Source: Dehalococcoidia bacterium
GTDB lineage: Bacteria > Chloroflexota > Dehalococcoidia > UBA6926
Direction: 5' to 3'
DNA: 64,000 bases
Assembly: GCA_965207115.1 (NCBI GenBank)
Contig: CBDBLR010000003.1
Coordinates: forward strand, 2,014-66,013
The notes under the pieces were generated by a model that was not told the DNA's origin, ran no database searches, and saw nothing but the letters and a program-made list of their open reading frames with translations. Below are positions 22,447 to 49,740 of the stretch, in pieces. The position numbers and the translations under genes are program-made. The stretch's first letter is position 1. Each line of letters opens with the position of its first letter.

Positions 22447-22460
22447 ACAACCACTACCGC

Positions 22461-22590
22461 CCTCGTTCACCCTGAGCCTGTCGAAGGGCCCCCACCCGTC
22501 ATTCCCGGCCTTACTCCCTAATTCCGGCGAGAGCCGGCATCCATGGATTCAGTCATTCAGAGCGCAGCAAGAGAACCCAAAGACGTGCCA
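22461..22590. repeat. composite REP-like element (modules B-A-A'-C)
   Basis: GTTCACCCTGAGCCTGTCGAAGGG + CGTCATTCCCGGCC + ATTCCGGCGAGAGCCGGCAT + GTCATTCAGAGCGCAGC; the same modules recur at about 11 other loci. Confidence 0.75.
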
Positions 22591-22712
22591 GATATCGGCA
22601 CGCTCTTCAGTATTTCCCAACGCAAACAAGGGATATTCACCGAGAAGAGACTTGGAACCAGACGAAAGGCTCAGTACAAGTCGTCGCCGGAGTACCGAAT
22701 AAGGCTTGGCGC

Positions 22713-24377
22713 TTATTGAGAGAGTCCTCCACCTAGCTCGCGGTGCATTCTGCGCAGAAAATCTACAATCTCGCGCAATCCTGACTCTGCTTCATCGACA
22801 CTGAGACGACTTGCCATTTCCTCGGCAAGTTCAGGCTTCCATGAATTCTTCGCGGCCTTTCGGCCAACGAGTTTCCTGATGGTCGATTCCACGCTAGAGT
22901 TCGACACAAGGTCATCTGAATTAAGCTCGACATCGTAAAGAGTTTCCACAGCCTTCTGCAAGGTATCCACCGGATAATGGTCTTCCAACGTCCCCCTGGC
23001 TAGTATCTGACAGTTTTCTGGCACGACATGACCCTTGTCAATTGCCTCCTGTGCCTCGACTTCGGCATCTTTATCTAGAATGAGGAACAAAGGTAGACCT
23101 GCTTCCCGACCTACTTCGGCCCAGAACTCAATCTTCCTTCTTCCTCGCGGGTATCCATTTGCTGAAATCACCTTGACGTGGCGCTCAGCAAGCGAGGCTC
23201 CAATCAGATCACTTATTCTACTGTAAAACAAGTTGTCTGAGAGGCCTTCAACCAGCAAAATGGCGTCACAGAATAGAATGTCGCTAGGCCTCATACCAAT
23301 GCCAAACAGTGTGTGCTGGAGGCCCGCGATATCGTCTAGCCGCTTAACTTTTGTTTCAGTTGACGGCTTGCTGACGGAATACAAACCCTTGAGTGGCGAG
23401 TATTCTACCAAGAATGGAGAGTGAGTAGCTATGAATAGCTGCTTGCCACTTTCGGCGATTTCTGTCAGATATTGCCCGACTTGCTTAATGAGACCAGGGT
23501 GCAAGTGTGTCTCCGGCTCCTCAATGACAATTAGCGGGCCACTGCTCTCAATTTGATCAACTAATTTGAGGGTATTCTGTGTGCCTTCGCCCGTCATGCC
23601 CAGCGAAACCGTTACGTCCCCTTCCTCCACCTGAATTGAGGAGTCTACTCCCACCAGTCTGTGGCCATTGGGAGTGAACCTTTCAAATTGTTGGCCCAAC
23701 TTCGTCCAGGGGCGGCGTTTCAGTCCCTTAGATTGGGACGAGATCCAGAGCTCCTGTGCCTGTTCGTCGTCGACTATGGTCGGACGTTCCCTAAATCGGT
23801 CAGACCAATCCGGGCGAGATTCGGAAGTCTGAACGACTGTTAGGCTGTACCTAAGGAGGTCTGAGAGTCGCTGAACCAGGTCAGCAATCGTGACTGAGAC
23901 CGAAATGTTGGATTCCACCAACAAAGCAGAGTCGATTTGACTATAGACCTCCTCTCCATTCCGTATGTAGTCGATGCCGTCAAATCTCAGACTATCTATC
24001 ACCCAAGTAATTGATGTACCCGCCAGATGGAAGCCCTTTTCTATGTAGACTTCCGGGCTGTAATCGAGTTGGAAAAGCTCGTCGTTGCCAAAGAGTTGCC
24101 CCCATTCATCCTCTGTTAGTGAAAGTGTGGCAGAAATGGTGGAAGGTGCGTCGACATAAGCATCATGTGCAGGGAAGAGGTGCTGGAACTCGTCGATTGC
24201 TCCCAATTCCCTTTCCATATCGGGGCCGAATTCAAGGAAGAGAAGAGACATGGCGTCAATAATATTTGACTTGCCCGAGCTATTCTTGCCAATGAAAACC
24301 GCGAGACCCGGTAACTCACGCAACTCAACGTCAATAAGGCTTGTGAAGTTGCGCACATGAAGAGTCTTGATTTTCAA
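22713..24377 (-). CDS. OLD-family (overcoming lysogenization defect) ABC-ATPase + TOPRIM nuclease, standalone (P2 Old / GajA-like); probable TTG start 24377 (alt GTG 24401)
   Basis: N-term KIKTLHVRNF…FIGKNSSGKSN (Walker A); LIVIEEPETHLHP (Walker B/D-loop); ATHSPFL (H-loop); TOPRIM LLVEGLSD … LILDKDAE. Gene GC ~48% vs ~64% flanks. SD AAGGAG before TTG. No adjacent UvrD-like helicase. Confidence 0.8.
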   Translation of the reverse strand: MKIKTLHVRNFTSLIDVELRELPGLAVFIGKNSSGKSNIIDAMSLLFLEFGPDMERELGAIDEFQHLFPAHDAYVDAPSTISATLSLTEDEWGQLFGNDELFQLDYSPEVYIEKGFHLAGTSITWVIDSLRFDGIDYIRNGEEVYSQIDSALLVESNISVSVTIADLVQRLSDLLRYSLTVVQTSESRPDWSDRFRERPTIVDDEQAQELWISSQSKGLKRRPWTKLGQQFERFTPNGHRLVGVDSSIQVEEGDVTVSLGMTGEGTQNTLKLVDQIESSGPLIVIEEPETHLHPGLIKQVGQYLTEIAESGKQLFIATHSPFLVEYSPLKGLYSVSKPSTETKVKRLDDIAGLQHTLFGIGMRPSDILFCDAILLVEGLSDNLFYSRISDLIGASLAERHVKVISANGYPRGRRKIEFWAEVGREAGLPLFLILDKDAEVEAQEAIDKGHVVPENCQILARGTLEDHYPVDTLQKAVETLYDVELNSDDLVSNSSVESTIRKLVGRKAAKNSWKPELAEEMASRLSVDEAESGLREIVDFLRRMHRELGGGLSQ

Positions 24378-24596
24378 CTTGGACAGTCTCCTTGCTCCCA
24401 CCCGCCTCTCATCTTACGATTGCCAGCATGCCTGATGACCATATCTTGTGTATTTTAGCTTATGTGTACGTATGTAGCAATCTAGAATCGCCCTTCTGCG
24501 TTGACAGGCATGGGGCAAGAATCACTTAGCTGGAATAGCGTACATTGGCAAGTTAGTCGTGAGTGAATTCAACAATCGACGGCCGCGCACTCCCCC

Positions 24597-26416: not shown

Positions 26417-26791
26417 CTACGCCGCAGCCTTCTCCGCTTCTAGGGCTTCCTTCGCCGCCTCGGCAATCCGCGCAAACGCTTGCGGGTCCCGCACGGCCAG
26501 GTCGGCCAGCATCTTGCGATCGACAGCCACGTTCGCCAGCTTCAGGCCGTGAATAAGATTCCCGTACGTGATGTCATTCATCCGCGCCGCGGCGTTGATC
26601 CGCGTGATCCACAGTCGACGGAAGTCGCCCTTGCGCTCACGCCGGTGCTCATAGGCGTACTGCCACGAGTGCAGAAGGGACTCCTGCGCCCGGCGAAACA
26701 GCTTGTGCCGGGAGCCCCATTGCCCCTTCATCAGGTTGATGACTTCCTTGTGGCGGCGACGCGTTCGAGGCCCGCCCTTGATTCGGGTCAT
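26417..26791 (-). CDS. rplT: 50S ribosomal protein L20
   Basis: MTRIKGGPRTRRRHKEV… full-length L20. Confidence 0.95.
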   Translation of the reverse strand: MTRIKGGPRTRRRHKEVINLMKGQWGSRHKLFRRAQESLLHSWQYAYEHRRERKGDFRRLWITRINAAARMNDITYGNLIHGLKLANVAVDRKMLADLAVRDPQAFARIAEAAKEALEAEKAAA

Positions 26792-26835: not shown

Positions 26836-27042
26836 TTACGGGCCGTACGGCAGCAGTCGCTGCACGCGACGCCTGTCCGCCGGGCTCAGGGGATGCTCAT
26901 CGCCGTACAGACGCTTCACGTCCTTCGGCTTGCGGCGGCGCAGGTGGCTCTGATGCCCCTTGCGCTTGGTCAGCTTGCCGGAGCCGGTCATGCCGATCCG
27001 CTTCTGAGTGCCCTTATGCGTCTTTAGTTTGTACTTTGCCAT
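26836..27042 (-). CDS. rpmI: 50S ribosomal protein L35
   Basis: MAKYKLKTHKGTQKR… L35. Confidence 0.95.
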   Translation of the reverse strand: MAKYKLKTHKGTQKRIGMTGSGKLTKRKGHQSHLRRRKPKDVKRLYGDEHPLSPADRRRVQRLLPYGP

Positions 27043-27079: not shown

Positions 27080-27679
27080 CTACGCCTGATCGGTTGAAGC
27101 CGCGACGACAGGTGTCTCTTCAGCCTGCTCATCCGGAACTGCAGCCGGCTCTTCCAAAGAAGCCTCTAATGGGGCCTCAACCTGCTTCGCCGGCGCGGCA
27201 TGCTTGCGCTTCAGGGGGGCCAGGATCATGCTCATGCCCCGTCCCTCCAGCTGCGGCGCAACATCAATGCCCGCTATGTCCTCCACCTGTTCAGATACCT
27301 TCTTAAGCAGATTGATCGCCAACTCGGGATGCGTCGCCTCTCGACCTCTGAAAATCACCGAGACCTTGACCTTGTCCCCGCCGTCAATCAGCTTGCGTAC
27401 CGTCCTCGTCTTGAAGTCGATATCGTGCTGACCGATCTTGGGGCGGAGCCGCACCTCGCCGAGTTCCTGCGTGTGCTGTCCCTTGCGGAGCTCGCGCTCC
27501 TTCTTGGACTGCTCGTAGCGATACCGACCATAATCCAGGATACGGCACACAGGGGGCTGGGCGCCCGGGGCAACCTCAACCAGGTCAAGGCCCCGATCCT
27601 GCGCCAGCTGAATGGCGTCTGCCGTATGCATCACCCCAACTCGTTCCCCCGTGTCGGTCACCACAAGGACTTCCTGCAC
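27080..27679 (-). CDS. infC: translation initiation factor IF-3 (GTG start as in the ORF track; non-canonical start possible)
   Basis: PPVCRILDYGRYRYEQ … FRGREATHPE motifs; conserved infC-rpmI-rplT order. Confidence 0.9.
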   Translation of the reverse strand: MQEVLVVTDTGERVGVMHTADAIQLAQDRGLDLVEVAPGAQPPVCRILDYGRYRYEQSKKERELRKGQHTQELGEVRLRPKIGQHDIDFKTRTVRKLIDGGDKVKVSVIFRGREATHPELAINLLKKVSEQVEDIAGIDVAPQLEGRGMSMILAPLKRKHAAPAKQVEAPLEASLEEPAAVPDEQAEETPVVAASTDQA

Positions 27680-27953
27680 GGTTATGCGTTGGTTGACGCG
27701 GTAATCTCTCGGTATGTCTACTCCCTCGCTTTGAATCTGTCAGCCGTATCGCTCAAGCACGTACTCTACAATCCGCCCATTTACCCCGTCAAGAACGAAT
27801 ACATCACACCCAACCCGATTATTCTTTCCACTCCCTGTCATTCTGACCGCAATGTTGTATCCAAATTCCTGAAAGGCAGCCACAGCCGGAACGCGGCGAA
27901 ACAACTTCACACACTATTCAGCCCTGCTCACGAACTATGGCTGTAGGCACTGC

Positions 27954-30356
27954 CTACCTCAGCACTCCACTCTCTGTGCCCTCTTTGATCTCCTCGTCGG
28001 ACAAGCCGAGCACGCTCGTGAACACATACTCATTATCCTCACCAATCCATGGCGCGCGGTTTGCCGCAGTTGCCTTGGATAGCGAGGGAACGGCCGGTAG
28101 TCCGTGATGGGACAGCGTCCCCCACGTCGTGTGTGTCGACCGCACGATGTGTCCGCGCTCTCGCAGATGCGGATCGTTGTACAAGTCCTCGCTGTTCATC
28201 GCCACGCCCGCCGGCACCCCGACCTTCTGCAGCATGTGCAGAACCTGGTGAGACGTGAACGCCTTTGCCCACTCACTGATCTCGTGGTCGATTTCGTCGC
28301 GATTCGCCCGTCGCCCATCCCTGTCTGCGAATCGCGGGTCGTCCGCCCAGTGCGGCGCGCCCATCGCCTGTGCGAGAGCCCGCCACTGCTCGTCCGTCTC
28401 GCATGCAATGACGATCCATGTGTCCGGGTACCGGCACGCATACGCGCCGTAGGGGGCGTAATGGGCGGCAAGAGGCTCGTCATAGCCCACGCTGCCCCAA
28501 ATGTTCCCGTTGATCGTGTAGTCCAGGATGGCCGGGCCCATCATCGATCCCTGGCCGTCCACCTGCGCAATCTCGATGAACTGCCCCCGCCCGGTCACGT
28601 CGCGGTACTCAAGCGCGGCCGCCGTCGAAAGCGCAACGAACGCTGCTCCCACATAGTCCGGTATCACGCCCTTCGCGTGGTTCTGCATCGGCGAGTCCGG
28701 GTGCCCCCATAGCAGCGACAGCCCCGTCACCGCCTGCAGGTTGTTGCCATATGTCACCCAGTTGTTCAGTGGCCCGTCGGATCCCATCCCCGGCATCCCG
28801 ATCTGGATGATGCCCGGGTTGATCTTCGTCAGATCGTCGTAGCCCAGACCAAGCCGCTTCATGACCGTGGCGCTGAAGTTATCGACGACAACGTCACTGT
28901 CTTTAGCGAGCCGACGGAACAACTCCTTACCCTCATCCGAGCGCAGATCGACCGTGCAACTCAGCTTGTTGCGGTTCATGTCAGGGAACAGCGGGCGCGT
29001 CGGCTCACGGTTCGCCTCAAGGCTTGCAGACTCCACCTTGATGACCTCCGCGCCGTAGAATCCCAGGAACATCGTCCCGATGGGCCCCGCAAACGCCCGG
29101 GTGATGTCTGCCACGCGAATGCCGTCCAACAGGGCCGCATCCGGCGCCTTGCCGTTCGTCGGGGCAGGGTACGTCTCCCGCCTCGGTGAAACGGTCTCAA
29201 TCTCGGCAAGCACCTCGTCCCGATGCTGGTCCAGAAGAGGCGCAGGGCGAGTCTGGTTCCACGGCGTCGCCGACATGATGAACGGCTGCCCCGGCGTCTC
29301 GTACTCGCCGACGACAGGATGCGTTACCTTCTGGAACCACCCGCGCTGCCTCATATGGTCATCTGTTACAAAATCCTCGAACGTGTTGACCGGGCAGCAC
29401 GCGAGGCCACGCTTCTGCGCCTCCTCCACGAACTCATCGCGGTCGAACTGCTCGACAAACGACTGAATCAGTATCTGCGCGAGGTCCTCGTTGTCCGTTC
29501 GGTACTGGGACGAATCCCAGTCATCGTCGGACAGCACCGCGTCCTCCATCCACTGCCGGGACAGAACCCGCCAATGGCCGGTCATAAAGATCGCAATCTG
29601 GACGTACTTGTCATCCTTTGTTCGATAGATATTCGCAGGACCGCCGCGCGGCCCCTGCCGCGTCACGATCTCGCTCCGTTGGCTGTACCGCGCAATCGTG
29701 CCGACCGTTGCGAATGTCAGCGCCTCCTGCAGCGAAAGGTCGATGCGCTGCCCGCGCCCCGTCGCCCGCCGGTGCCGCACGGCGTTGATCGCCAGGTACG
29801 CTCCGTGCACAGCCGCAAGCTGCGATCCGATCTGGCACGGCAGCACGACTGGTGAGCGCTCATCGTCACCCTGGCTCATCATCACGCCGGACATGGCGGA
29901 GATGATTGCCTCATTGGCAGCAAAGTGGCTGAACGGCCCAGTCTGGCCGAACGGTGTCAGCGAGACCGTCACAAGCCCCGGATTAAGTGCCTCCAGCCGA
30001 TCGTCATCGATCCCCAGCGATGCCAACTGCCCGGGAGTTGTGCACTCCACAAAGACATCCGCGCGCTCGATGAGCTTCTCCAACGTCTCTCGACTGCCTG
30101 AGTCATCAATATCCAGCACGATGCTGCGACGATTCAGATTGGCGTTCAGGAACTTGATGCCGCGCTCCGGGTCTGCGATGTCCCCCGCGAAGGGCCCATG
30201 CATCCGATTCGGATCGCCCCCTGGCGGCTCAACCTTGATGACATCCGCGCCGAGCCCCGCGAGGAACCCCGCGCAATACGCCGCCGGAATCTCCCCAATC
30301 TCAACAACCCGCAAATGCCCCAGCGCCGAATCCCTATTCCCGTTAGTCATAGCCAT
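27954..30356 (-). CDS. fused double family-III CoA-transferase (two CaiB/BaiF domains), ~800 aa
   Basis: Two CaiB-like domains (…EIPAAYCAGFLAGLGADVIKVEPPGGD… and …DITRAFAGPIGTMFLGFYGAEVIKVES…). ATG 30356 follows GGGGAGA; the track's GTG 30365 is less likely. Confidence 0.7.
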   Translation of the reverse strand: MAMTNGNRDSALGHLRVVEIGEIPAAYCAGFLAGLGADVIKVEPPGGDPNRMHGPFAGDIADPERGIKFLNANLNRRSIVLDIDDSGSRETLEKLIERADVFVECTTPGQLASLGIDDDRLEALNPGLVTVSLTPFGQTGPFSHFAANEAIISAMSGVMMSQGDDERSPVVLPCQIGSQLAAVHGAYLAINAVRHRRATGRGQRIDLSLQEALTFATVGTIARYSQRSEIVTRQGPRGGPANIYRTKDDKYVQIAIFMTGHWRVLSRQWMEDAVLSDDDWDSSQYRTDNEDLAQILIQSFVEQFDRDEFVEEAQKRGLACCPVNTFEDFVTDDHMRQRGWFQKVTHPVVGEYETPGQPFIMSATPWNQTRPAPLLDQHRDEVLAEIETVSPRRETYPAPTNGKAPDAALLDGIRVADITRAFAGPIGTMFLGFYGAEVIKVESASLEANREPTRPLFPDMNRNKLSCTVDLRSDEGKELFRRLAKDSDVVVDNFSATVMKRLGLGYDDLTKINPGIIQIGMPGMGSDGPLNNWVTYGNNLQAVTGLSLLWGHPDSPMQNHAKGVIPDYVGAAFVALSTAAALEYRDVTGRGQFIEIAQVDGQGSMMGPAILDYTINGNIWGSVGYDEPLAAHYAPYGAYACRYPDTWIVIACETDEQWRALAQAMGAPHWADDPRFADRDGRRANRDEIDHEISEWAKAFTSHQVLHMLQKVGVPAGVAMNSEDLYNDPHLRERGHIVRSTHTTWGTLSHHGLPAVPSLSKATAANRAPWIGEDNEYVFTSVLGLSDEEIKEGTESGVLR

Positions 30357-30379
30357 TCTCCCCACCGATTAGGCGCATT

Positions 30380-30590
30380 CGTCATTCCCCCGAAAGCATG
30401 CCCCGTACTCCGATACGGGGCGGGAATCCAGAACACCCTCTCCCAATCTGCGAGTACGATAGGCGTCCCACCCTTGAAGGGTCAAGAACAAAACACCCCC
30501 GTTCGCCCTGAGCCTGTCGAAGGGCCACCACGCCCGTCATTCCCGGCCCCCCCCGTCATTCCCGCGCAGGCGAGAACCTGAATCACAATG
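30380..30590. repeat. composite REP-like element (A with nested 20-nt palindrome, B, A')
   Basis: CGTCATTCCC…CCCCGTACTCCGATACGGGG…CGGGAATCCAG; GTTCGCCCTGAGCCTGTCGAAGGG; CGTCATTCCCGGCC…GTCATTCCCGCGCAGGCG. Confidence 0.75.
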
Positions 30591-30688
30591 CCGCAAGCCA
30601 ACCCCGTAACGCCGCTCAACCCCTTGCCCCCACCTCTCACAATTAGTAGGGTAGACACAAAACAACACGTCTACCCTGAGGAACGACA

Positions 30689-30955
30689 ATGAGCCTGAAC
30701 ATCAAGAACGAAGAAACCTGCCGACTCGCCGAAGAACTGGCGGCCCTAACCAAAGAAAACAAGACGCAGGCCATCACCATCGCCCTGCAAGAACGCCTTG
30801 AGCGGGTGACGGGCGAGCGCGAAAAGAGAATCGAGTGGGAAAAGAAGGCAATGCGAGCCGCTGCGGAGCGTATTGCGCCGCACTTGAAACCGGGGCCCTC
30901 CTCTACAGAGATCGGTGACTTTCTCTACGGTGGCGAATTTGGCGAACCGAAATGA
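30689..30955 (+). CDS. vapB: type II antitoxin (VapB/FitA-like)
   Basis: 88 aa, SD GAGGAA; 4-nt overlap (ATGA) with downstream PIN gene. Confidence 0.6.
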   Translation: MSLNIKNEETCRLAEELAALTKENKTQAITIALQERLERVTGEREKRIEWEKKAMRAAAERIAPHLKPGPSSTEIGDFLYGGEFGEPK

Positions 30956-31338
30956 TCATCGATTCATCTGCGATCTGTGCCATCCTCCTAAACGAATCTG
31001 ACGCCGACCACTACGAAGATGCAGTAATAGACGCTGATGTCCGCCGCATGTCTGCGGGGAGTCTTCTGGAAACTTCAATGGTCATCGAAGGCCGGGCCGG
31101 ACTGTCGGGCGGAGATGAGCTTGATGCGTTCATCGAGCGCCACACAATCGAAATCGTCCCCGTAACGCCTGAGCACGTCGCCGCCGCTCGACGCGCCTGG
31201 CGAGAATTCGGCAAAGGCAACCACCCCGCCGCCCTCAACCTCGGCGACTGCCTCGCCTACGCCCTCTCAGAAATGACCCAAGAACCCCTCCTCTACAAAG
31301 GCCAGGACTTCGGCCAGACGGATGTTCAGCCGGCCTAA
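30952..31338 (+). CDS. vapC: PIN-domain toxin VapC
   Basis: MIIDSSAI… (Asp4), …D…LLYKGQDF…; 128 aa. Confidence 0.8.
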   Translation: MIIDSSAICAILLNESDADHYEDAVIDADVRRMSAGSLLETSMVIEGRAGLSGGDELDAFIERHTIEIVPVTPEHVAAARRAWREFGKGNHPAALNLGDCLAYALSEMTQEPLLYKGQDFGQTDVQPA

Positions 31339-33227
31339 GCCGCATCAGTCTCCTCTTCACTCTCACCCACTTCGTCAAACTCCTGCCCATCATCGACGAA
31401 CTGCTCTATAACACCTACGCCACCGACGTCAAGGGCATCTGAAAAAATCCGACGCCCGTCACCCAAGTCTCGACCCATGGCAGCACCAATAAGCGTGAGC
31501 ATTTCTTGGCCGCGTTCCATAAACGAGGCGCGAAAGTCATCAGTGTGCAAATGGTCGGGTTTGAGCCAATGAGACTCTAGGAGGGCATCAAGTTTGCCCG
31601 CGGGTACCTTGGACTGCAACGCATTCAAGTAAACCGAGGGTGCACGGCCGCCCATGGACCTATTTGTCCCTGGATCCATAGGTGTCTTGTTGATGATTGA
31701 GTCGTGCAACCACCTATCGATCCTGTTCGAAATGCACCACGCAACAGGGAATATGTGATGAATGTCGATACCCCTGTCGTCATAAGTAGTAAAAGAAAGC
31801 GACTCTGCCGTCATCCAGTCTTGGGCGCCATTCTTCAATTGTAGTGCATAGACGCCCTTGTACGCGGCGCTATTTCTGGTGCGGAGTGAAATGAGTCGCT
31901 CAGGAACGAAGTTTGCTTCGCGCAAGAAGGGTGGCTCTACGCCTGTTCGCACGTATTCAGCAACGTCGACAAGATCGCGCGCGAACTGTGTTTCGACGGC
32001 ACCCCCGTAAATTTCGCCAAAGACGCCAGACCAGTACCATCGTTCCAAGCGTTCCAATGCAATGGCCGTATGTGCCTCATGTCCCAATTCGACATATAGC
32101 ACCGCAAGCGGCACGAGTTGTGTGTTGTAAGGCACATTCCATCTGCCAAAGACATATTGGCTGCGCAGAAAATTAGCGGCCTTTATGAAGCCGTCTTCAA
32201 GTGCTTCTGCCCAACGGAGATAGTCCCTTTGCCGCAAGTCAAGGATATCCCTCTTCCTGCACCCAACTGCCCGCGCCCGGTTGTGTAGGGTGCCATCTTT
32301 GATGTCTGACCGATTGTCCTCCTGCGTTTTTAGCAAGGCAACCGCCTGCAAGAATTGATCGCCTGAAAGACCGTGCAGAACGCTGCGTTTGGAGTGCAGA
32401 CGAGTTCTCCGTTCATCCCAGTCATCGCGCAGAGAAAAACTCCCATCGACGGCAAAGGTTGCCGTAGCAAGCTCAAAGACGTTCAGGCTTACGCCGCCCG
32501 TGTTAACCTTTTCGAATACGGTGCAGACGGCTTCCTTTGGTGTTTCCTTGCCAAGTTCAATAACCGGAAGTTGATAGTTGGTGAAGTTATTGAGGACAGA
32601 TTCCTGGAATTCCTTGAAGAACTCTGGAGCCGTTCCACCCGGATGCTGACTTTCAGGGCTCGCCCAATACGCCACATACCCAAGTAGCCAATTCGTCGAG
32701 CCAAGCAGTGCCTCGGTGGGCATCATGTGCTTTTCAAACTCCCTCTCGGGAGTTGAAAGGTTCAGTACTTCTTTCCGGCCAAAATCTTCTGTGATGATTC
32801 GATTTTCTGGAAGGCTTCTTATCGCATCCTCACGATCAACTCTTGGATCCAGCGCCGCTTGCATGTCGACGTAGTACCACCGCTTGATCTTGCGTCTGCG
32901 GCTGTCGCTTGTGTCGACTGCGCCCGGATGTCGCAAAGCCTGGTAGAGGGAAGTGAGCCGCTGCTGGCCATCGAGAAGATATGATTCTGGAGAAATCGCC
33001 CCTTCACTCGTAGCACCCTCAATTAGCCGAGACTTGAGGCTTATATCCCCCCCCGCCTCCAGCGTCATCACGGCGCCTATTGGGAAGCCTCTTGAGATGC
33101 TGGCGAGAAGAGCGCGGATTCGGTCGTCGTCCCAAATCCAACCTCGTTGAAAGTCCGGCAATTTGATCTTTCCGGACTCAACGGAGTCGAGGACCTGCGA
33201 CAGCAGCCTAGGATTGGTGTCAAACAT
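31335..33227 (-). CDS. GmrSD-family type IV (modification-dependent) restriction endonuclease-like protein (DUF262 + DUF1524/HNH)
   Basis: N-terminal DUF262 motifs FQRGWIWDD and LLDGQQRLTSL; C-terminal His-Me finger …IDIHHIFPVAW…N. Gene GC ~52% vs ~65% flanks. Confidence 0.8.
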   Translation of the reverse strand: MFDTNPRLLSQVLDSVESGKIKLPDFQRGWIWDDDRIRALLASISRGFPIGAVMTLEAGGDISLKSRLIEGATSEGAISPESYLLDGQQRLTSLYQALRHPGAVDTSDSRRRKIKRWYYVDMQAALDPRVDREDAIRSLPENRIITEDFGRKEVLNLSTPEREFEKHMMPTEALLGSTNWLLGYVAYWASPESQHPGGTAPEFFKEFQESVLNNFTNYQLPVIELGKETPKEAVCTVFEKVNTGGVSLNVFELATATFAVDGSFSLRDDWDERRTRLHSKRSVLHGLSGDQFLQAVALLKTQEDNRSDIKDGTLHNRARAVGCRKRDILDLRQRDYLRWAEALEDGFIKAANFLRSQYVFGRWNVPYNTQLVPLAVLYVELGHEAHTAIALERLERWYWSGVFGEIYGGAVETQFARDLVDVAEYVRTGVEPPFLREANFVPERLISLRTRNSAAYKGVYALQLKNGAQDWMTAESLSFTTYDDRGIDIHHIFPVAWCISNRIDRWLHDSIINKTPMDPGTNRSMGGRAPSVYLNALQSKVPAGKLDALLESHWLKPDHLHTDDFRASFMERGQEMLTLIGAAMGRDLGDGRRIFSDALDVGGVGVIEQFVDDGQEFDEVGESEEETDAA

Positions 33228-33313
33228 CGAACCTCCTACCGAGTCCCATGGAATGTAGTGGATCGTAGTCTAAACGATCAAAGGGTGATTGGTTGACCCA
33301 GTCTGCCCCCCCC

Positions 33314-35098
33314 TCACCCCCTCCCCTTTCCCACCTCCCCCAACACCCGCTCCACAAACTCCGATATCGCCACCGCCCCCAAGTTCTCGCTGTTCTCCCG
33401 CCGCCGCACCGCCACCGCGCCCGACTCCGCCTCGCGGTCGCCGACAACCAGCATGTACGGCACGTGCCGCGTCTGCGCCTCCCGGATCTTCGCGTTCATA
33501 CGCTCGTTGCGATCATCGATCTCACACCGCAGCCCCGCCGCATGCAACTGCTCCTGCACCTGCTGAGCGTAGGGGATATGCCGGTCCGCGATGGGGATGA
33601 CCGTCGCCTGCACCGGCGCCAACCACACCGGGAACGCCCCCGCGTTGTGCTCCAGTAGCACCCCGAAGAACCGCTCCAACGACCCAAGAATCGCGCGATG
33701 AATCATCACCGGCCTCTCGCGCGTGTTTTCCTCCGTCACGTATTCCAGATCGAACCGCTCCGGCAGGTTGAAATCCAGCTGGAACGTGCTCAACTGCCAC
33801 TCGCGGCGTAGAGCGTCCTGTGAGAACAGATCGATCTTCGGCCCGTAGAACGCCCCCTCATTGGGAATCTCCTCGAAGTCCGCCCCCGCCAGCGTCAGCG
33901 CCTCCCGCAGAGCCTCCTCCGCGCGATCCCACGTCTCGTCACTTCCCACACGCTTCTCAGGCCGCAGCGATAGGGTGTACCGAGGCTCATTCAACCCGAA
34001 CGCCTCGTACACGTCGCGCATCATCCGGATCAGCGACGAGAACTCATCCTGCACCTGGTCCAAACGACAAAAAATATGCGCGTCGTCCTGCGAAAAACTC
34101 CGAACCCGCGTCAGCCCGTGCGTAACTCCTGACCGCTCATTCCGATGCAGCCGCCCAAAGTCCGCCAATCGCAGCGGCAGCGCGCGATACGAATGCAGCT
34201 GCGACTGATAAACAACGCAGTGCCCGGGGCAGTTCATCGGCTTGACCCCGTACTCGATTTCATCCGACTGCGTCAGGTACATGTTCTCCAGGTAATTGTC
34301 GTAATGCCCCGACTGCTTCCACAGGTCGGTCAAAAAGATCTGAGGCGTGATCACCTCCTGGTAGCCGTACTTGTCATACAGCTCGCGGATGAAATCAACC
34401 ATCAGGTTGTAGACCGTCGCCCCCTTCGGCAGGAAGAACGGGCTGGCCGGCGCGATCGGATCGAAGAAAAACAGGTCCAAATCGCGCCCCAGCCGCCGAT
34501 GATCCCGCCGCTCCGCCTCCGCCAACCGCTCCAGGTGCGCGTCCAGCTCCTCCTGCGTCTCGAACAACGCCCCGTAGATGCGCTGCAACTGCGGATTGCT
34601 CTCATTGCCGCGCCAATACGCCCCCGCCACGCGCGTCAGTGTGAACGCCCCCGTCTTGTCCGTCGACTCCGCATGCGGCCCCTGGCACAGGTCCGTGAAG
34701 TCTCCGTGCGTGTACGTCGAGACCGTCTCATCCGTCAGGCTCTCGATAATCTCCACCTTGAACGGCTGGTCCGCGAACCGGGTCAGCCCCTCCTCGCGCG
34801 CCATCTCATCCGCGACGAACGGCGCAGCGGCCGCCGCGCTCTCCCGCATCCGTTTCTCGATCTCCGGCAGATCGTCAGTAGACAGCGTGCGTGGCAGCAG
34901 GAAGTCGTAATAGAACCCGTCCTCGATGGGCGGCCCGATACCAAGCTTCGCCTCGGGGAACATGGACAGCACCGCCTCCGCCATCATGTGCGCCGCGGAA
35001 TGCCGCATCCGGATGAGCGTGTCGTCCTCACCCGCATAGCGCCCTTCAAGCGCGCCGTCATGCCCGGTGTCTGATGCGTGACCTTCTTGATGGGACAT
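33314..35098 (-). CDS. thrS: threonyl-tRNA synthetase (no N-terminal TGS domain), 594 aa
   Basis: Class II aaRS motifs; …RHSAAHMMAEAV…FYYDF…; HRRLGRDLDLFFF; C-terminal anticodon-binding domain. Confidence 0.9.
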   Translation of the reverse strand: MSHQEGHASDTGHDGALEGRYAGEDDTLIRMRHSAAHMMAEAVLSMFPEAKLGIGPPIEDGFYYDFLLPRTLSTDDLPEIEKRMRESAAAAAPFVADEMAREEGLTRFADQPFKVEIIESLTDETVSTYTHGDFTDLCQGPHAESTDKTGAFTLTRVAGAYWRGNESNPQLQRIYGALFETQEELDAHLERLAEAERRDHRRLGRDLDLFFFDPIAPASPFFLPKGATVYNLMVDFIRELYDKYGYQEVITPQIFLTDLWKQSGHYDNYLENMYLTQSDEIEYGVKPMNCPGHCVVYQSQLHSYRALPLRLADFGRLHRNERSGVTHGLTRVRSFSQDDAHIFCRLDQVQDEFSSLIRMMRDVYEAFGLNEPRYTLSLRPEKRVGSDETWDRAEEALREALTLAGADFEEIPNEGAFYGPKIDLFSQDALRREWQLSTFQLDFNLPERFDLEYVTEENTRERPVMIHRAILGSLERFFGVLLEHNAGAFPVWLAPVQATVIPIADRHIPYAQQVQEQLHAAGLRCEIDDRNERMNAKIREAQTRHVPYMLVVGDREAESGAVAVRRRENSENLGAVAISEFVERVLGEVGKGRG

Positions 35099-42095: not shown

Positions 42096-42206
42096 CGTTC
42101 ACCCTGAGCCTGTCGAAGGGCCCGCGTCATTCCCTATTCCCCTCCGTCATTCCCGCGAAAGCGGGAATCCAGAATCCCCCCCGTTCACCCTGAGCCTGTC
42201 GAAGGG
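42096..42206. repeat. composite REP-like element (B-A-B) immediately after rho stop
   Basis: CGTTCACCCTGAGCCTGTCGAAGGG x2 flanking CCGTCATTCCCGCGAAAGCGGGAATCCAG (8-bp stem, GAAA loop). Confidence 0.8.
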
Positions 42207-46920: not shown

Positions 46921-46975
46921 CATCGTCATTCCCGCCCCCCTTCCGTCATTCCCGTGAAAACGGGAATCCAGTACG
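46921..46975. repeat. REP-like element type A (left flank of GIY-YIG gene)
   Basis: CGTCATTCCCGCCCCCCTTCCGTCATTCCCGTGAAAACGGGAATCCAG. Confidence 0.8.
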
Positions 46976-47017
46976 GCGCGGCAGCGCCGTCCCCGTTCCG
47001 TCTACAATCAAAGAGCA

Positions 47018-47332
47018 ATGACCAACCCCCGTCCCCGCAAAAGGCCCCTGGATCCGTGCGTCTACATCATGGCGAGTGACCGAAATGGGACCATCTACAC
47101 CGGCGTCACATCCAACCTTGTGCAGCGCGTCTGGCAGCACAAGACAAACCGGAATCAGGCCTTCACAAAGAAATATGAAATCCACCACCTCGTCTGGTAC
47201 GAGCAGCATGCAACCATGCTCTCCGCTATCGCGCGCGAGAAGGCGATCAAGAAATGGAACCGCCGCTGGAAACTGGAACTCATTGAGAGCCTCAACCCGG
47301 ACTGGCAAGACCTATACAAAGACATCGCCTAA
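47018..47332 (+). CDS. GIY-YIG nuclease-family small protein (104 aa)
   Basis: …CVYIMASDRNGTIYTGVTSNLVQRVWQHK… GIY-YIG core. Confidence 0.8.
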   Translation: MTNPRPRKRPLDPCVYIMASDRNGTIYTGVTSNLVQRVWQHKTNRNQAFTKKYEIHHLVWYEQHATMLSAIAREKAIKKWNRRWKLELIESLNPDWQDLYKDIA

Positions 47333-47350
47333 CCTCCCCCACAACCCCCC

Positions 47351-47400
47351 CCCGTCATTCCCGCCCCCCTCCGTCATTCCCGTGAAAACGGGAATCCAGT
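47351..47400. repeat. REP-like element type A (right flank of GIY-YIG gene), near-identical to 46921-46975
   Basis: CCGTCATTCCCGCCCCCCTCCGTCATTCCCGTGAAAACGGGAATCCAG, followed by a GCCGCCC-GCA-GGGCGGC hairpin. Confidence 0.8.
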
Positions 47401-48504: not shown

Positions 48505-49740
48505 TCATTGCGCCCTTAGCGCGGCCCCCACCCCCAAGAACCGCCCAATATCCCCAACCTCACCCCGCACCTCATCCCAAATAGACCCCAGCGCCCCCTC
48601 CATCCCCGGAAACGCCTCAACCGAGATCTCAAGCCGTTCGTCATTCCCGCGCCCCTGTCCGTCATTCCCGCGAAGGCGTGAACCTCTCACCCATCTCCAC
48701 GACCACGTCGCCACCGCAAGCCCATCGATAGTCACAACAGGCCGGATCATCCCCCCGCCCGCATTCACCCGGGACATATACTCCGGCGCAACCGCCAACC
48801 CCCGCCCCCGATACCCCAGCAAATAAGTATCAAAAAACCCCAACAACCTCACCAGCCCACCGTCATTCCCGCGCCCCTCTCTGTCATTCTGAGCGGAGCG
48901 CAGCGCAGTCGAAGAATCTAAAGCCTCATTGACCCAACCAACCCCCGTAACGCCGTCCACCACCCACATCCGCTCCCCCTCAACCCCAACCTCCACCAAC
49001 TCACCCGAGATCGCCCCAAACCCCGCCCGTGCGTCCCGCAGCGGCAGCCCCGACCACACAGCGAAGTCTCGCTCCGTCGAGGGCCCAAACGCCCTGATAT
49101 ACCGCCCCGCCAGCCGAGCGAGCCCCTCATCGCGCGAGAGCTCCGGCCGCTCGATCCCCGCCAGCCATGAATCCGCCGCCACAAAAGTCTCCGTCTTGCC
49201 GTCCAGCAGCGGCCCGTGCGCGATGACCCCCAAAAACCCCCCGGCCCGCACAACATGATGCAGAGCCTGGTTTGCAACAGGGATATCGTAAGTAGCCAGA
49301 CGCTCCGCTAACTGCTGTCGTGTCAGCGGCCCCTCATTACTTAGGACATCGACCGAGTGCTTAAGCGCCTCGTCCAATGTCGCGTCATCAAGACCGAGTT
49401 GGTGTCGCCTTCCGCGTCCGGCTGAAAAGGAGGATGCTCCTAGCAGAGCAGTCATCCATCTGTGATCTTCTGCAGGAATCAGATGAAGAGTCCCCCTCAT
49501 CGCCCACGTGCGAACGATGGAACGATCCTGTGAGAGTGCCTGTATGACGTCAGTGGATGTAAGCCCGGAGCTTCTTACGCGAACCTGCAAAGGCGCAGTA
49601 TTCATATCCTGCGCTTGTATACCGCCTGTGCCCCGCACAGTTTCCAATACCGCGCCCGCGCCGCCAATGGGAACATCAAGCCCCTGCGAAGATACGCGGA
49701 GACGCCGAGTGTTATCGGCAGAGAGTGCAATAGTGGACAT
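48505..49740 (-). CDS. winged-helix YcaQ/AlkZ-like protein (putative DNA glycosylase family) with two in-frame REP-like insertions
   Basis: ~400-aa family size and N-terminal pattern. Repeats at 48635-48693 and 48858-48925 are translated in-frame as …GRGNDGG… / …RLRGNDGQGRGNDER…. Confidence 0.5.
   Translation of the reverse strand: MSTIALSADNTRRLRVSSQGLDVPIGGAGAVLETVRGTGGIQAQDMNTAPLQVRVRSSGLTSTDVIQALSQDRSIVRTWAMRGTLHLIPAEDHRWMTALLGASSFSAGRGRRHQLGLDDATLDEALKHSVDVLSNEGPLTRQQLAERLATYDIPVANQALHHVVRAGGFLGVIAHGPLLDGKTETFVAADSWLAGIERPELSRDEGLARLAGRYIRAFGPSTERDFAVWSGLPLRDARAGFGAISGELVEVGVEGERMWVVDGVTGVGWVNEALDSSTALRSAQNDREGRGNDGGLVRLLGFFDTYLLGYRGRGLAVAPEYMSRVNAGGGMIRPVVTIDGLAVATWSWRWVRGSRLRGNDGQGRGNDERLEISVEAFPGMEGALGSIWDEVRGEVGDIGRFLGVGAALRAQ

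Follow-up and report, generated by a model that had tools for sequence, protein, structure and literature searches.

A predicted BrxU/GmrSD-like restriction gene and an optional vapBC pair between thrS and infC in a Dehalococcoidia lineage

The stretch of DNA analysed here (hereafter the window) is 64,000 nt long and comes from a Dehalococcoidia bacterium (GenBank assembly GCA_965207115.1, contig CBDBLR010000003.1, positions 2,014 to 66,013). In it, a gene for a DUF262-containing protein, a vapBC toxin–antitoxin pair and a CoA-transferase gene lie between the translation genes thrS and infC. Genes were called from the open reading frame (ORF) listing together with Pfam and NCBIfam scans of the window proteins. 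The slot is anchored upstream by the housekeeping gene thrS (33314-35098, minus strand), encoding a threonine-tRNA ligase (ThrRS) of 594 amino acids (aa) matched by TIGR00418 (E 1e-211) and by Pfam tRNA_SAD, tRNA-synt_2b and HGTP_anticodon. Directly after it, the DUF262 gene (31335-33227, minus strand) encodes a protein of 630 aa with a DUF262/GmrSD_N domain (PF03235, E 2.9e-29). On the plus strand lie vapC (30952-31338; a PIN-domain toxin of 128 aa, Pfam PIN E 1.7e-11) and vapB (30689-30955; an Rv0623-like antitoxin of 88 aa, PSK_trans_fac E 2.8e-18), followed on the minus strand by a gene for a fused tandem family-III CoA-transferase of 803 aa (27954-30365; Pfam CoA_transf_3 E 7.6e-183, in two stretches). 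Next come infC, encoding initiation factor IF3 (27080-27679 as called by the ORF finder, minus strand; Pfam IF3_N and IF3_C), and the housekeeping anchors on the downstream side, rpmI (26836-27042, minus strand; Pfam Ribosomal_L35p) and rplT (26417-26791, minus strand; Pfam Ribosomal_L20).

The DUF262 gene and vapC are convergent: the vapC stop codon TAA (31336-31338) and the minus-strand stop TAG of the DUF262 gene (31337-31335) have 4 nt in common (31335-31338), and the vapB stop and vapC start also overlap by 4 nt (ATGA). The DUF262 gene has a GC content of 53.1% and a GC content at third codon positions (GC3) of 0.57, the third lowest among 38 long window ORFs; the window median is 0.73, and the neighbouring genes have GC3 values of 0.72-0.83. 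An earlier reading of this DNA made from its letters (the sequence-only reading) had described a fused double CoA-transferase between thrS and infC, a 4-nt overlap between convergent vapC and gmrSD genes, and a lower GC content in the latter. All three descriptions hold, as two CoA_transf_3 domains are present, the two stop codons share 31335-31338 and the DUF262 gene is compositionally foreign.

To place this arrangement among other genomes, thrS-infC linkage was assessed by a ThrRS scan of species-representative genomes, with adjacency defined as infC within 700 bp of thrS. Among 75 assessable genomes the two genes were adjacent in 52, from many phyla and including the Dehalococcoidia genomes L017, L044 and L048, in agreement with the sequence-only reading, which had placed thrS normally directly upstream of infC. 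In the other 23, many of them Chloroflexota, infC was not within that distance; these include the nearest outgroups by ThrRS, L005 and L006 (61-63% identical), which have no infC within 10 kb of thrS. The same scan assigned the source lineage of the window to Dehalococcoidia, the closest genome being the metagenome-assembled genome S16_98 (L004), whose ThrRS is 96% identical and whose gene order is that of the window. Nine related contigs (L001, L002, L003, L004, L084, L118, L122, L123 and L124) have a ThrRS 84-96% identical to that of the window. The DUF262 gene directly follows thrS in all nine, the CoA-transferase gene and then infC-rpmI-rplT follow it wherever the contig reaches that far, and an empty site, with thrS and infC adjacent and no segment between them, occurs in none of them. 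Because the order thrS, DUF262, CoA-transferase, infC is common to all relatives recovered, it is ancestral to the clade and not recent.

The interruption of thrS-infC is therefore real when set against the widespread arrangement, yet ancestral to the clade. The sequence-only reading had taken the segment to be an insertion into thrS-infC and named a shared gene order of similar GC in relatives as the sign of an ancestral arrangement; the interruption stands, a recent origin does not, since the synteny comparison returned the same gene order in relatives, and the DUF262 gene has an equally low GC3 (0.55-0.63) in every one of them. The usual marks of a recent mobile island were also lacking. 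No integrase or transposase gene was found in 27680-33313 by ORF listing and Pfam, a tRNA scan of the whole window returned none and hence no tRNA integration site, and there was neither a credible target-site duplication nor, as noted, an empty site. Literature searches combining thrS, infC, defence island and hotspot returned nothing relevant.

The DUF262 protein is, by homology, a BrxU/GmrSD-like predicted type IV restriction enzyme. Its exact sequence is not on record, and a 99% identical protein (P0001) was used in its place. The Pfam GmrSD_N match covers residues 10-258 (profile positions 2-198 of 199). NCBIfam gave no family for this protein, for VapB or for VapC, and in all 120 homologues listed the precomputed annotation is PF03235 alone. 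A word-index search returned at least 8000 candidates, with many full-length matches at 58-67% identity, and an exhaustive search of cluster representatives gave 7907 matches at E <= 1e-3 and 745 at E <= 1e-30. The motifs QR, DGQQR and FxxxN are the signatures that define the GmrS domain, and (E/D)-H-N-N is the GmrD nuclease motif (PMC4619093). The GmrS-domain motifs QR, (I/V)DGQQR and FxxxN have their counterparts in the window protein in Q27-R28, L85-D-G-Q-Q-R90 and F238-E-K-V-N242, the same in all alleles found at this locus. In an alignment of 77 family members (A1), invariant or nearly invariant positions in the N-terminal part were Q27-R28, S43, D86-G-Q-Q-R90 and F238xxxN242, and those at the C-terminus were I-D-I-H490-H491-I-F-P, I-I-N513-K-T-P and T-N522-R. 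The nuclease motif of the protein accordingly reads H490-H491...N513...N522, a conserved variant with His at the first position compared with (E/D) in (E/D)-H-N-N.

Profile and structure comparisons point to the same family. BrxU is a GmrSD-family type IV enzyme from the Escherichia fergusonii plasmid pEFER (PDB 7P9K/7P9M), which degrades DNA carrying 5-methylcytosine (5mC), 5-hydroxymethylcytosine (5hmC) or glucosylated 5hmC (glc-5hmC) in a nucleoside triphosphate (NTP)-dependent manner, with a dimer-to-monomer switch (PMC8565348). A single-sequence PDB search with the DUF262 protein gave marginal matches only; the A1 profile aligned with BrxU (7p9k) at E 2.5e-17 in three collinear pieces, with IDIHHIFP placed against HVDHIYPK. 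The AlphaFold2 model of the protein (pLDDT 92.9, pTM 0.87) has an N-terminal DUF262 ParB-like NTPase domain, a helical middle and a C-terminal His-Me finger, with strands at 488-491 and 514-517, a helix at 519-525 and an acidic disordered tail at 608-630. In a Foldseek comparison of the model with the PDB, BrxU was the top match (E 6e-14 over ~640 columns) and the top full-length one, and the best structural relatives are the defence nucleases BrxU, SspE and DndI. Motifs, profile alignment and predicted fold together support a C-terminal DUF1524-type His-Me finger (beta-beta-alpha). The earlier assignment to a DUF262/DUF1524 GmrSD family is thus upheld by fold and catalytic motifs; its DUF1524 part has no match to PF07510.

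Like BrxU, the window protein is a single chain of ~600 aa with the order DUF262, helical region, His-Me nuclease, and it has the QR, R-x-L-x-x-S and DGQQR motifs and a (D/H)H-I-[YF]-P nuclease motif followed by two Asn. Unlike BrxU, with which it shares only 14-17% sequence identity, it has HH for DH at the catalytic strand, lies outside any BREX locus, and ends in an acidic disordered tail, its C-terminus being unmatched by Pfam DUF1524. With GmrSD and Eco94GmrSD (Escherichia coli CT596 and STEC_94C) it has in common the combination of DUF262 with an HNH-type nuclease, the QR, DGQQR and FxxxN motifs, and four nuclease residues in a variant of the (E/D)-H-N-N pattern (PMC4619093). It departs from GmrSD in having H where the nuclease motif begins with E/D, in an N...N spacing of 9 compared with 8 in L(G/A)NLxLLxxxN, and in the lack of a sequence-level match to PF07510. 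SspE and DndI, phosphorothioate-sensing DUF262 effectors (PDB 6JIV, 7DRI, 9JFL), had lower structural scores than BrxU; the window protein is shorter, and ssp or dnd genes are not nearby. The best PADLOC match of the DUF262 protein was PDC-M55C (E 8.3e-32, residues 7-433 only), a component of a multi-gene PADLOC candidate system of which we found no mention in the literature searched. The likeness is to component C only, with no A or B partner at the window locus, and neither PDC-M55A nor PDC-M55B is among the 25 of 108 PADLOC families listed for 39 window ORFs. The matches to PADLOC HEC-05, HEC-06 and NsnA cover the DUF262 N-terminus only.

Comparison of the DUF262 alleles with their backbone indicates that this gene is a low-GC3 cassette exchanged between lineages. 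In the closest relative, L004, ThrRS and the CoA-transferase are 96% and 97% identical to those of the window at the amino acid level, and the DUF262 protein is 65% identical. In L001, where ThrRS (95%) and the CoA-transferase (93%) are slightly more distant, the DUF262 protein is 99% identical. In the other contigs, ThrRS and DUF262 identities are 94% and 64% in L123/L124 and ~85% and 85% in L003, and identities for ThrRS, CoA-transferase and DUF262 are 92%, 92% and 66% in L118, 86%, 79% and 67% in L084, and 84%, 81% and 64% in L122. Such a pattern cannot come from clock-like vertical divergence. In sliding nucleotide comparisons, identity between the window and L004 is ~92% before the thrS stop codon, 55-75% from exactly that point to the DUF262 stop codon, and higher again beyond it; between the window and L001 it is 99-100% from the thrS stop to the DUF262 stop, with flanks at 82-96%. 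That allele identity is out of step with the backbone, and breaks at the borders of the gene, argues for repeated allele replacement by homologous recombination in the conserved flanks. The alleles form at least five groups, 64-74% identical between groups, and the nearest relative of one group is a copy that another genome (L117) carries at a different locus. Every catalytic motif is intact in all alleles, and the divergence is evenly spread over the domains. In most of these genomes the neighbouring genes have a GC3 of ~0.80 (0.63-0.73 in L122), compared with the 0.55-0.63 of the DUF262 alleles.

The spacer between thrS and the DUF262 gene is 86 bp long (33228-33313, minus strand), with a Shine-Dalgarno sequence GGAGG 6 nt before the ATG, and measures 15-100 bp in the relatives. 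No terminator-like hairpin was found in the 86-bp spacer by the scan. Given such short spacers and the lack of a terminator-like site, the DUF262 gene is probably co-transcribed with thrS by read-through.

Some relatives also have, next to the DUF262 gene, a gene for a retropepsin-like protein of 117 aa with a DTGA motif and weak gag-asp_proteas matches. It is a variable occupant of the slot in L084 (9895-10248) and L001 (3553-3906), and in L117 (9849-10202) it stands downstream of the DUF262 homologue at the other locus; the copies from these two loci share 83% identity. The window shows no trace of it, and L004 and L118 lack it. An ORF of 122 aa in L004 (14406-14774), opposite the repeat region of the window described below, was treated as spurious; it has no Pfam match and overlaps repeats of the same kind.

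On the features of its sequence, vapBC is a predicted standard, autoregulated type II toxin–antitoxin pair. A PSK_trans_fac antitoxin gene stands directly upstream of vapC and overlaps it by 4 nt, the Pfam PIN match spans residues 1-124 of VapC, and the acidic residues D4, E40, D99 and D119 were read from the translation and placed by position. A perfect 9-bp inverted repeat, AGGGTAGAC-N12-GTCTACCCT (30648-30677, plus strand), ends 12 nt upstream of the vapB ATG; its arms are kept in L004 and L084 and its spacer varies there, and it is a probable VapB(C) operator. The VapBC pair named by the sequence-only reading is thus intact (PIN plus PSK_trans_fac). Its namesake, among pairs with an Rv0623-like antitoxin, is Rv0623/Rv0624 of Mycobacterium tuberculosis, and the likeness to such pairs extends to the PSK_trans_fac gene followed by a PIN toxin, the four acidic residues, the 4-nt overlap and the upstream palindrome. 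PADLOC gave no match for vapB or vapC.

vapBC is an optional add-on, separate from the DUF262 cassette. L118 and L122 lack it, and there the DUF262 stop codon directly precedes a repeat element like that of the window and the promoter-like block of the CoA-transferase gene. Where present in relatives, VapB and VapC are 55-81% identical to those of the window, more divergent than the backbone, and in L001 the DUF262 protein is 99% identical yet VapC only 76% and VapB 70%. VapBC and the restriction gene assort independently and are convergent, which argues for separate modules in a shared hotspot rather than one system. The combined VapBC and GmrSD defence islet of the sequence-only reading was, on these grounds and given the relatives that lack vapBC, not borne out.

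Outside the clade, the DUF262 family is mobile and associated with defence islands. Plasmids of sphingomonads, cyanobacteria, Rhodococcus, Burkholderia and others carry full-length homologues of ~41% identity, whose sole annotation is "DUF262 domain-containing protein"; the one on a Sphingopyxis plasmid adjoins a RelE/HigA pair and a restriction-modification (RM) system. A few homologues are found in phage records. Metagenomic homologues (37-47% identity) stand beside Eco57I-like methylases with REase-ARP, AbiEii and a Schlafen/AlbA_2 protein, and in further contexts beside DUF488, beside a transposase, and between hsdM and hsdS. A homologue of 64% identity adjoins MazE/PemK (L085-L087). The toxin–antitoxin families near DUF262 homologues differ each time, which points to co-location rather than a dedicated partnership. 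On two sphingomonad plasmids (L119, 2777-4957; L120, 2774-4966), a gene for a protein of ~730 aa, annotated as a helix-turn-helix (HTH) transcriptional regulator, lies 20-30 bp before the DUF262 homologue; this HTH gene, not present in the window, may be a partner gene of that sub-branch, which is perhaps PDC-M55.

We consider it likely that the locus reflects an ancestral split of thrS-infC, a swappable BrxU/GmrSD-like cassette and an independent, optional vapBC. In this uncultured Dehalococcoidia (Chloroflexota) lineage with small genomes, the CoA-transferase gene and the BrxU/GmrSD-like gene would have split thrS-infC long ago, in a layout that is now clade-fixed. The DUF262 domain would bind and hydrolyse NTP via its DGQQR pocket, gating a BrxU-like dimer/monomer cycle, and the His-Me finger (H490/H491/N513/N522) would cleave modified-base DNA, for example phage DNA with 5mC, 5hmC or glucosyl-5hmC. 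At least five allele classes would have been swapped in the one slot by homologous recombination that breaks at the stop codons of thrS and of the cassette itself, and this exchange would be consistent with selection from phages or from phage anti-restriction proteins. vapBC would have entered at a point between the cassette and the promoter of the CoA-transferase gene, beside the repeats, and would be neither co-transcribed nor co-inherited with the restriction gene.

Several points weigh against this explanation. The DUF262 gene is present in every clade member found, which is unusual for a defence gene and fits a housekeeping role too. Pfam reports no DUF1524 (PF07510) match in the DUF262 protein even at E <= 10, and its first catalytic residue is H, not the D/E of the family; other HNH nucleases commonly have HH. 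For substrate, NTP dependence and anti-phage activity, the prediction draws on structural relatives of 14-17% identity, and PDC-M55C, the best PADLOC match, belongs to a multi-gene candidate system that is uncharacterised and whose partner genes are absent here. Co-transcription with thrS is argued solely from short spacers and a negative terminator scan. Finally, as L005 and L006 suggest, the immediate ancestor may never have had thrS and infC adjacent.

The sequence-only reading had seen in this segment an insertion of ~5.5 kb and, in VapBC with GmrSD, a plausible defence islet. In its full form this would be a single recent defence islet comprising the CoA-transferase, the repeats, vapBC and gmrSD, with VapBC and GmrSD acting as a joint restriction/abortive-infection system. 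The adjacency of thrS and infC as the majority state (52/75) and the low GC of the DUF262 gene speak for it, as does a toxin–antitoxin pair beside family members in three settings unrelated to one another (VapBC in the window, MazE/PemK in L085-L087, RelE/HigA on the Sphingopyxis plasmid), although the difference in toxin–antitoxin family between these contexts is a better fit to defence-island co-location. An islet of this kind is also difficult to reconcile with a layout common to all nine of the related contigs, even the one whose ThrRS is only 84% identical, with a CoA-transferase that is native in composition and tracks the backbone, with a vapBC that L118 and L122 lack and that assorts without regard to the DUF262 allele, and with the lack of an integrase, a transposase, a tRNA or a credible target-site duplication. 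The segment is composite, and a single recent islet, largely refuted by synteny, is in our view improbable. A vertically inherited housekeeping gene of the thrS operon, such as a ParB-like NTPase/nuclease in repair or chromosome handling, would account for the same address in every clade genome recovered (a closed 1.72-Mb contig among them), the tight spacing behind an essential gene and the strict conservation of the catalytic motifs. It would not account for allele identities strongly discordant with the backbone and breaking at gene borders, for the foreign GC3 of all alleles, for homologues on plasmids and inside RM and defence islands of other phyla, or for best structural relatives that are all defence nucleases (BrxU, SspE and DndI), and we hold it to be about equally unlikely.

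The kinship with SspE and DndI raises a further alternative, in which the protein is not a type IV enzyme but an effector that senses a phosphorothioate or other modification of host DNA and nicks unmodified invading DNA. The immediate neighbours of the gene are thrS, vapBC and the CoA-transferase gene, and no ssp, dnd or BREX component is among the 25 of 108 PADLOC families listed for the window ORFs, a weak negative; we give such an effector marginally less credence than either of the two preceding alternatives. Within the preferred explanation of an ancestral split with an exchangeable cassette, a bolder version can be put forward tentatively: the slot may be a fixed-address immune locus, in which every member keeps one GmrSD-like gene transcribed from an essential gene, and in which the five or more ancient allele classes form a trans-lineage balanced polymorphism. 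If so, the driving force would be the types of DNA modification in phages or IPI*-like anti-restriction proteins, and the alleles would differ in modification specificity or in inhibitor sensitivity.

The DUF262 protein represents a known kind of system and no new kind, in a subfamily that is uncharacterised and poorly annotated. It adds to the GmrSD/BrxU type IV family a large uncharacterised branch, comprising the 745 representative clusters at E <= 1e-30 from many phyla and plasmids, which is annotated only as "DUF262 domain-containing protein" because its nuclease domain escapes the Pfam DUF1524 model. The most interesting aspect of the locus is the fixed address combined with exchangeable alleles: a defence gene stays at a single chromosomal position, flanked by essential translation genes, and lineages trade its alleles, which makes for a clean example in nature. 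The host belongs to an uncultured lineage with small genomes, of whose phages very little is known, and the divergent alleles are a ready panel for determinants of modification specificity or inhibitor escape.

Defence hotspots in the core genome, flanked by housekeeping genes, have been described in Pseudomonas, E. coli and Vibrio. The present locus resembles them in its fixed address between core genes, in its variable defence content and in having a second slot nearby; it differs in that the slot always holds the same protein family as divergent alleles, and lies inside the thrS-infC translation cluster. The second slot, 3 kb beyond rplT, is a low-GC islet (22452-24592) whose gene (22713-24401, minus strand) encodes an OLD-family ATPase with a TOPRIM nuclease (AAA_15/AAA_21 and OLD-like_TOPRIM; best PADLOC match 'Old', 3.8e-27). 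With a GC content of 50%, it has the lowest GC3 (0.54) of the 38 long window ORFs, and no GajB-like or other partner gene adjoins it. The islet is without counterpart in the 93-95% identical L004, where the slot between the AhpC-like and DUF1801 genes is occupied instead by an ORF for an HNH_2 endonuclease of 390 aa (L004 20361-21533). The remaining low-GC3 ORFs of the window encode a DUF1697 protein, a sortase, an AlkZ-like glycosylase and an ABC ATPase, none of them defence-related.

The CoA-transferase gene belongs to resident metabolism, not to defence. It has a native composition (GC3 0.78), and its counterparts in L004, L084, L118 and L122 (796-803 aa) are 79-97% identical and track the backbone; for these reasons it is not part of a mobile islet. 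NCBIfam places its halves at 13-386 and 407-802, and its best NCBIfam matches, to succinyl-CoA:mesaconate and formyl-CoA transferases, are all below cut-offs. Family-III CoA-transferases are interlocked homodimers, and the covalent fusion of two complete family-III domains into a pseudo-dimer is structurally curious.

The 323-bp spacer before vapB (30366-30688) contains three copies of the 10-mer CGTCATTCCC and one CCCTGAGCCTGTCGAAGGG-type module. Here the sequence-only reading had noted a composite of repetitive extragenic palindromic (REP) elements, a fair label since CGTCATTCCC occurs 15 times in the window against 0.26 expected, every time on the plus strand. The composite itself (30380-30580, no strand assigned) consists of the three CGTCATTCCC modules, a hairpin CCCCGTACTCCGATACGGGG...GGGAATCC and the CCCTGAGCCTGTCGAAGGG-type module. 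REP-like GC-rich palindromic repeats, with modules that include CGTCATTCCCGCGAAAGCGGGAATCC, CCCTGAGCCTGTCGAAGGG and GTCATTCTGAGCGGAGCGCAGCG, are found between genes at window positions 243, 22497, 30380-30563, 42125-42154, 46924-47381, 48639-48870 and 61860, and copies border both variable slots (22472-22506 and 30380-30580). A direct repeat of 14 nt that brackets the segment (27689-27702 and 33289-33302) was rejected as a target-site duplication because its copies are 86% identical, one lies within infC N-terminal coding sequence, and such a pair is expected by chance; by our estimate, dozens of 14-nt repeat pairs at 86% would arise in 5.8 kb.

Promoter and terminator scans gave site counts not above shuffled expectation. 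Among the promoter-like sites, support beyond the scan is found only for TTGACC-N18-TATCGT upstream of the CoA-transferase gene (30456-30485, minus strand), a block conserved in the window, L004, L118 and L084. The promoter-like TTGACG-N18-TAGAGT (27763-27792, minus strand), in the spacer of 274 bp ahead of infC, has only its match to the consensus behind it. An Rfam scan of the whole window at gathering thresholds returned nothing, and hence no leader RNA.

Two observations concern the anchor genes. E. coli ThrRS has ~640 aa, and that of the window and its clade relatives is short (577-594 aa); in the window protein TIGR00418 is matched only from residue 32 onwards and a TGS domain is missing from the Pfam matches at E <= 0.001, so that the N-terminal region appears reduced. 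For infC, a gene known for atypical start codons, the probable start is an ATA at 27715, 12 codons upstream of the GTG at 27679 that the ORF finder selected. The Shine-Dalgarno sequence GAGGGAG stands before this ATA, and the gene would then extend over 27080-27715 (minus strand). The IF3_N match starts only at profile position 8, which fits N-terminal residues missing from the GTG-started product, and the N-terminus added from the ATA start would read IPRDYRVNQRIT.

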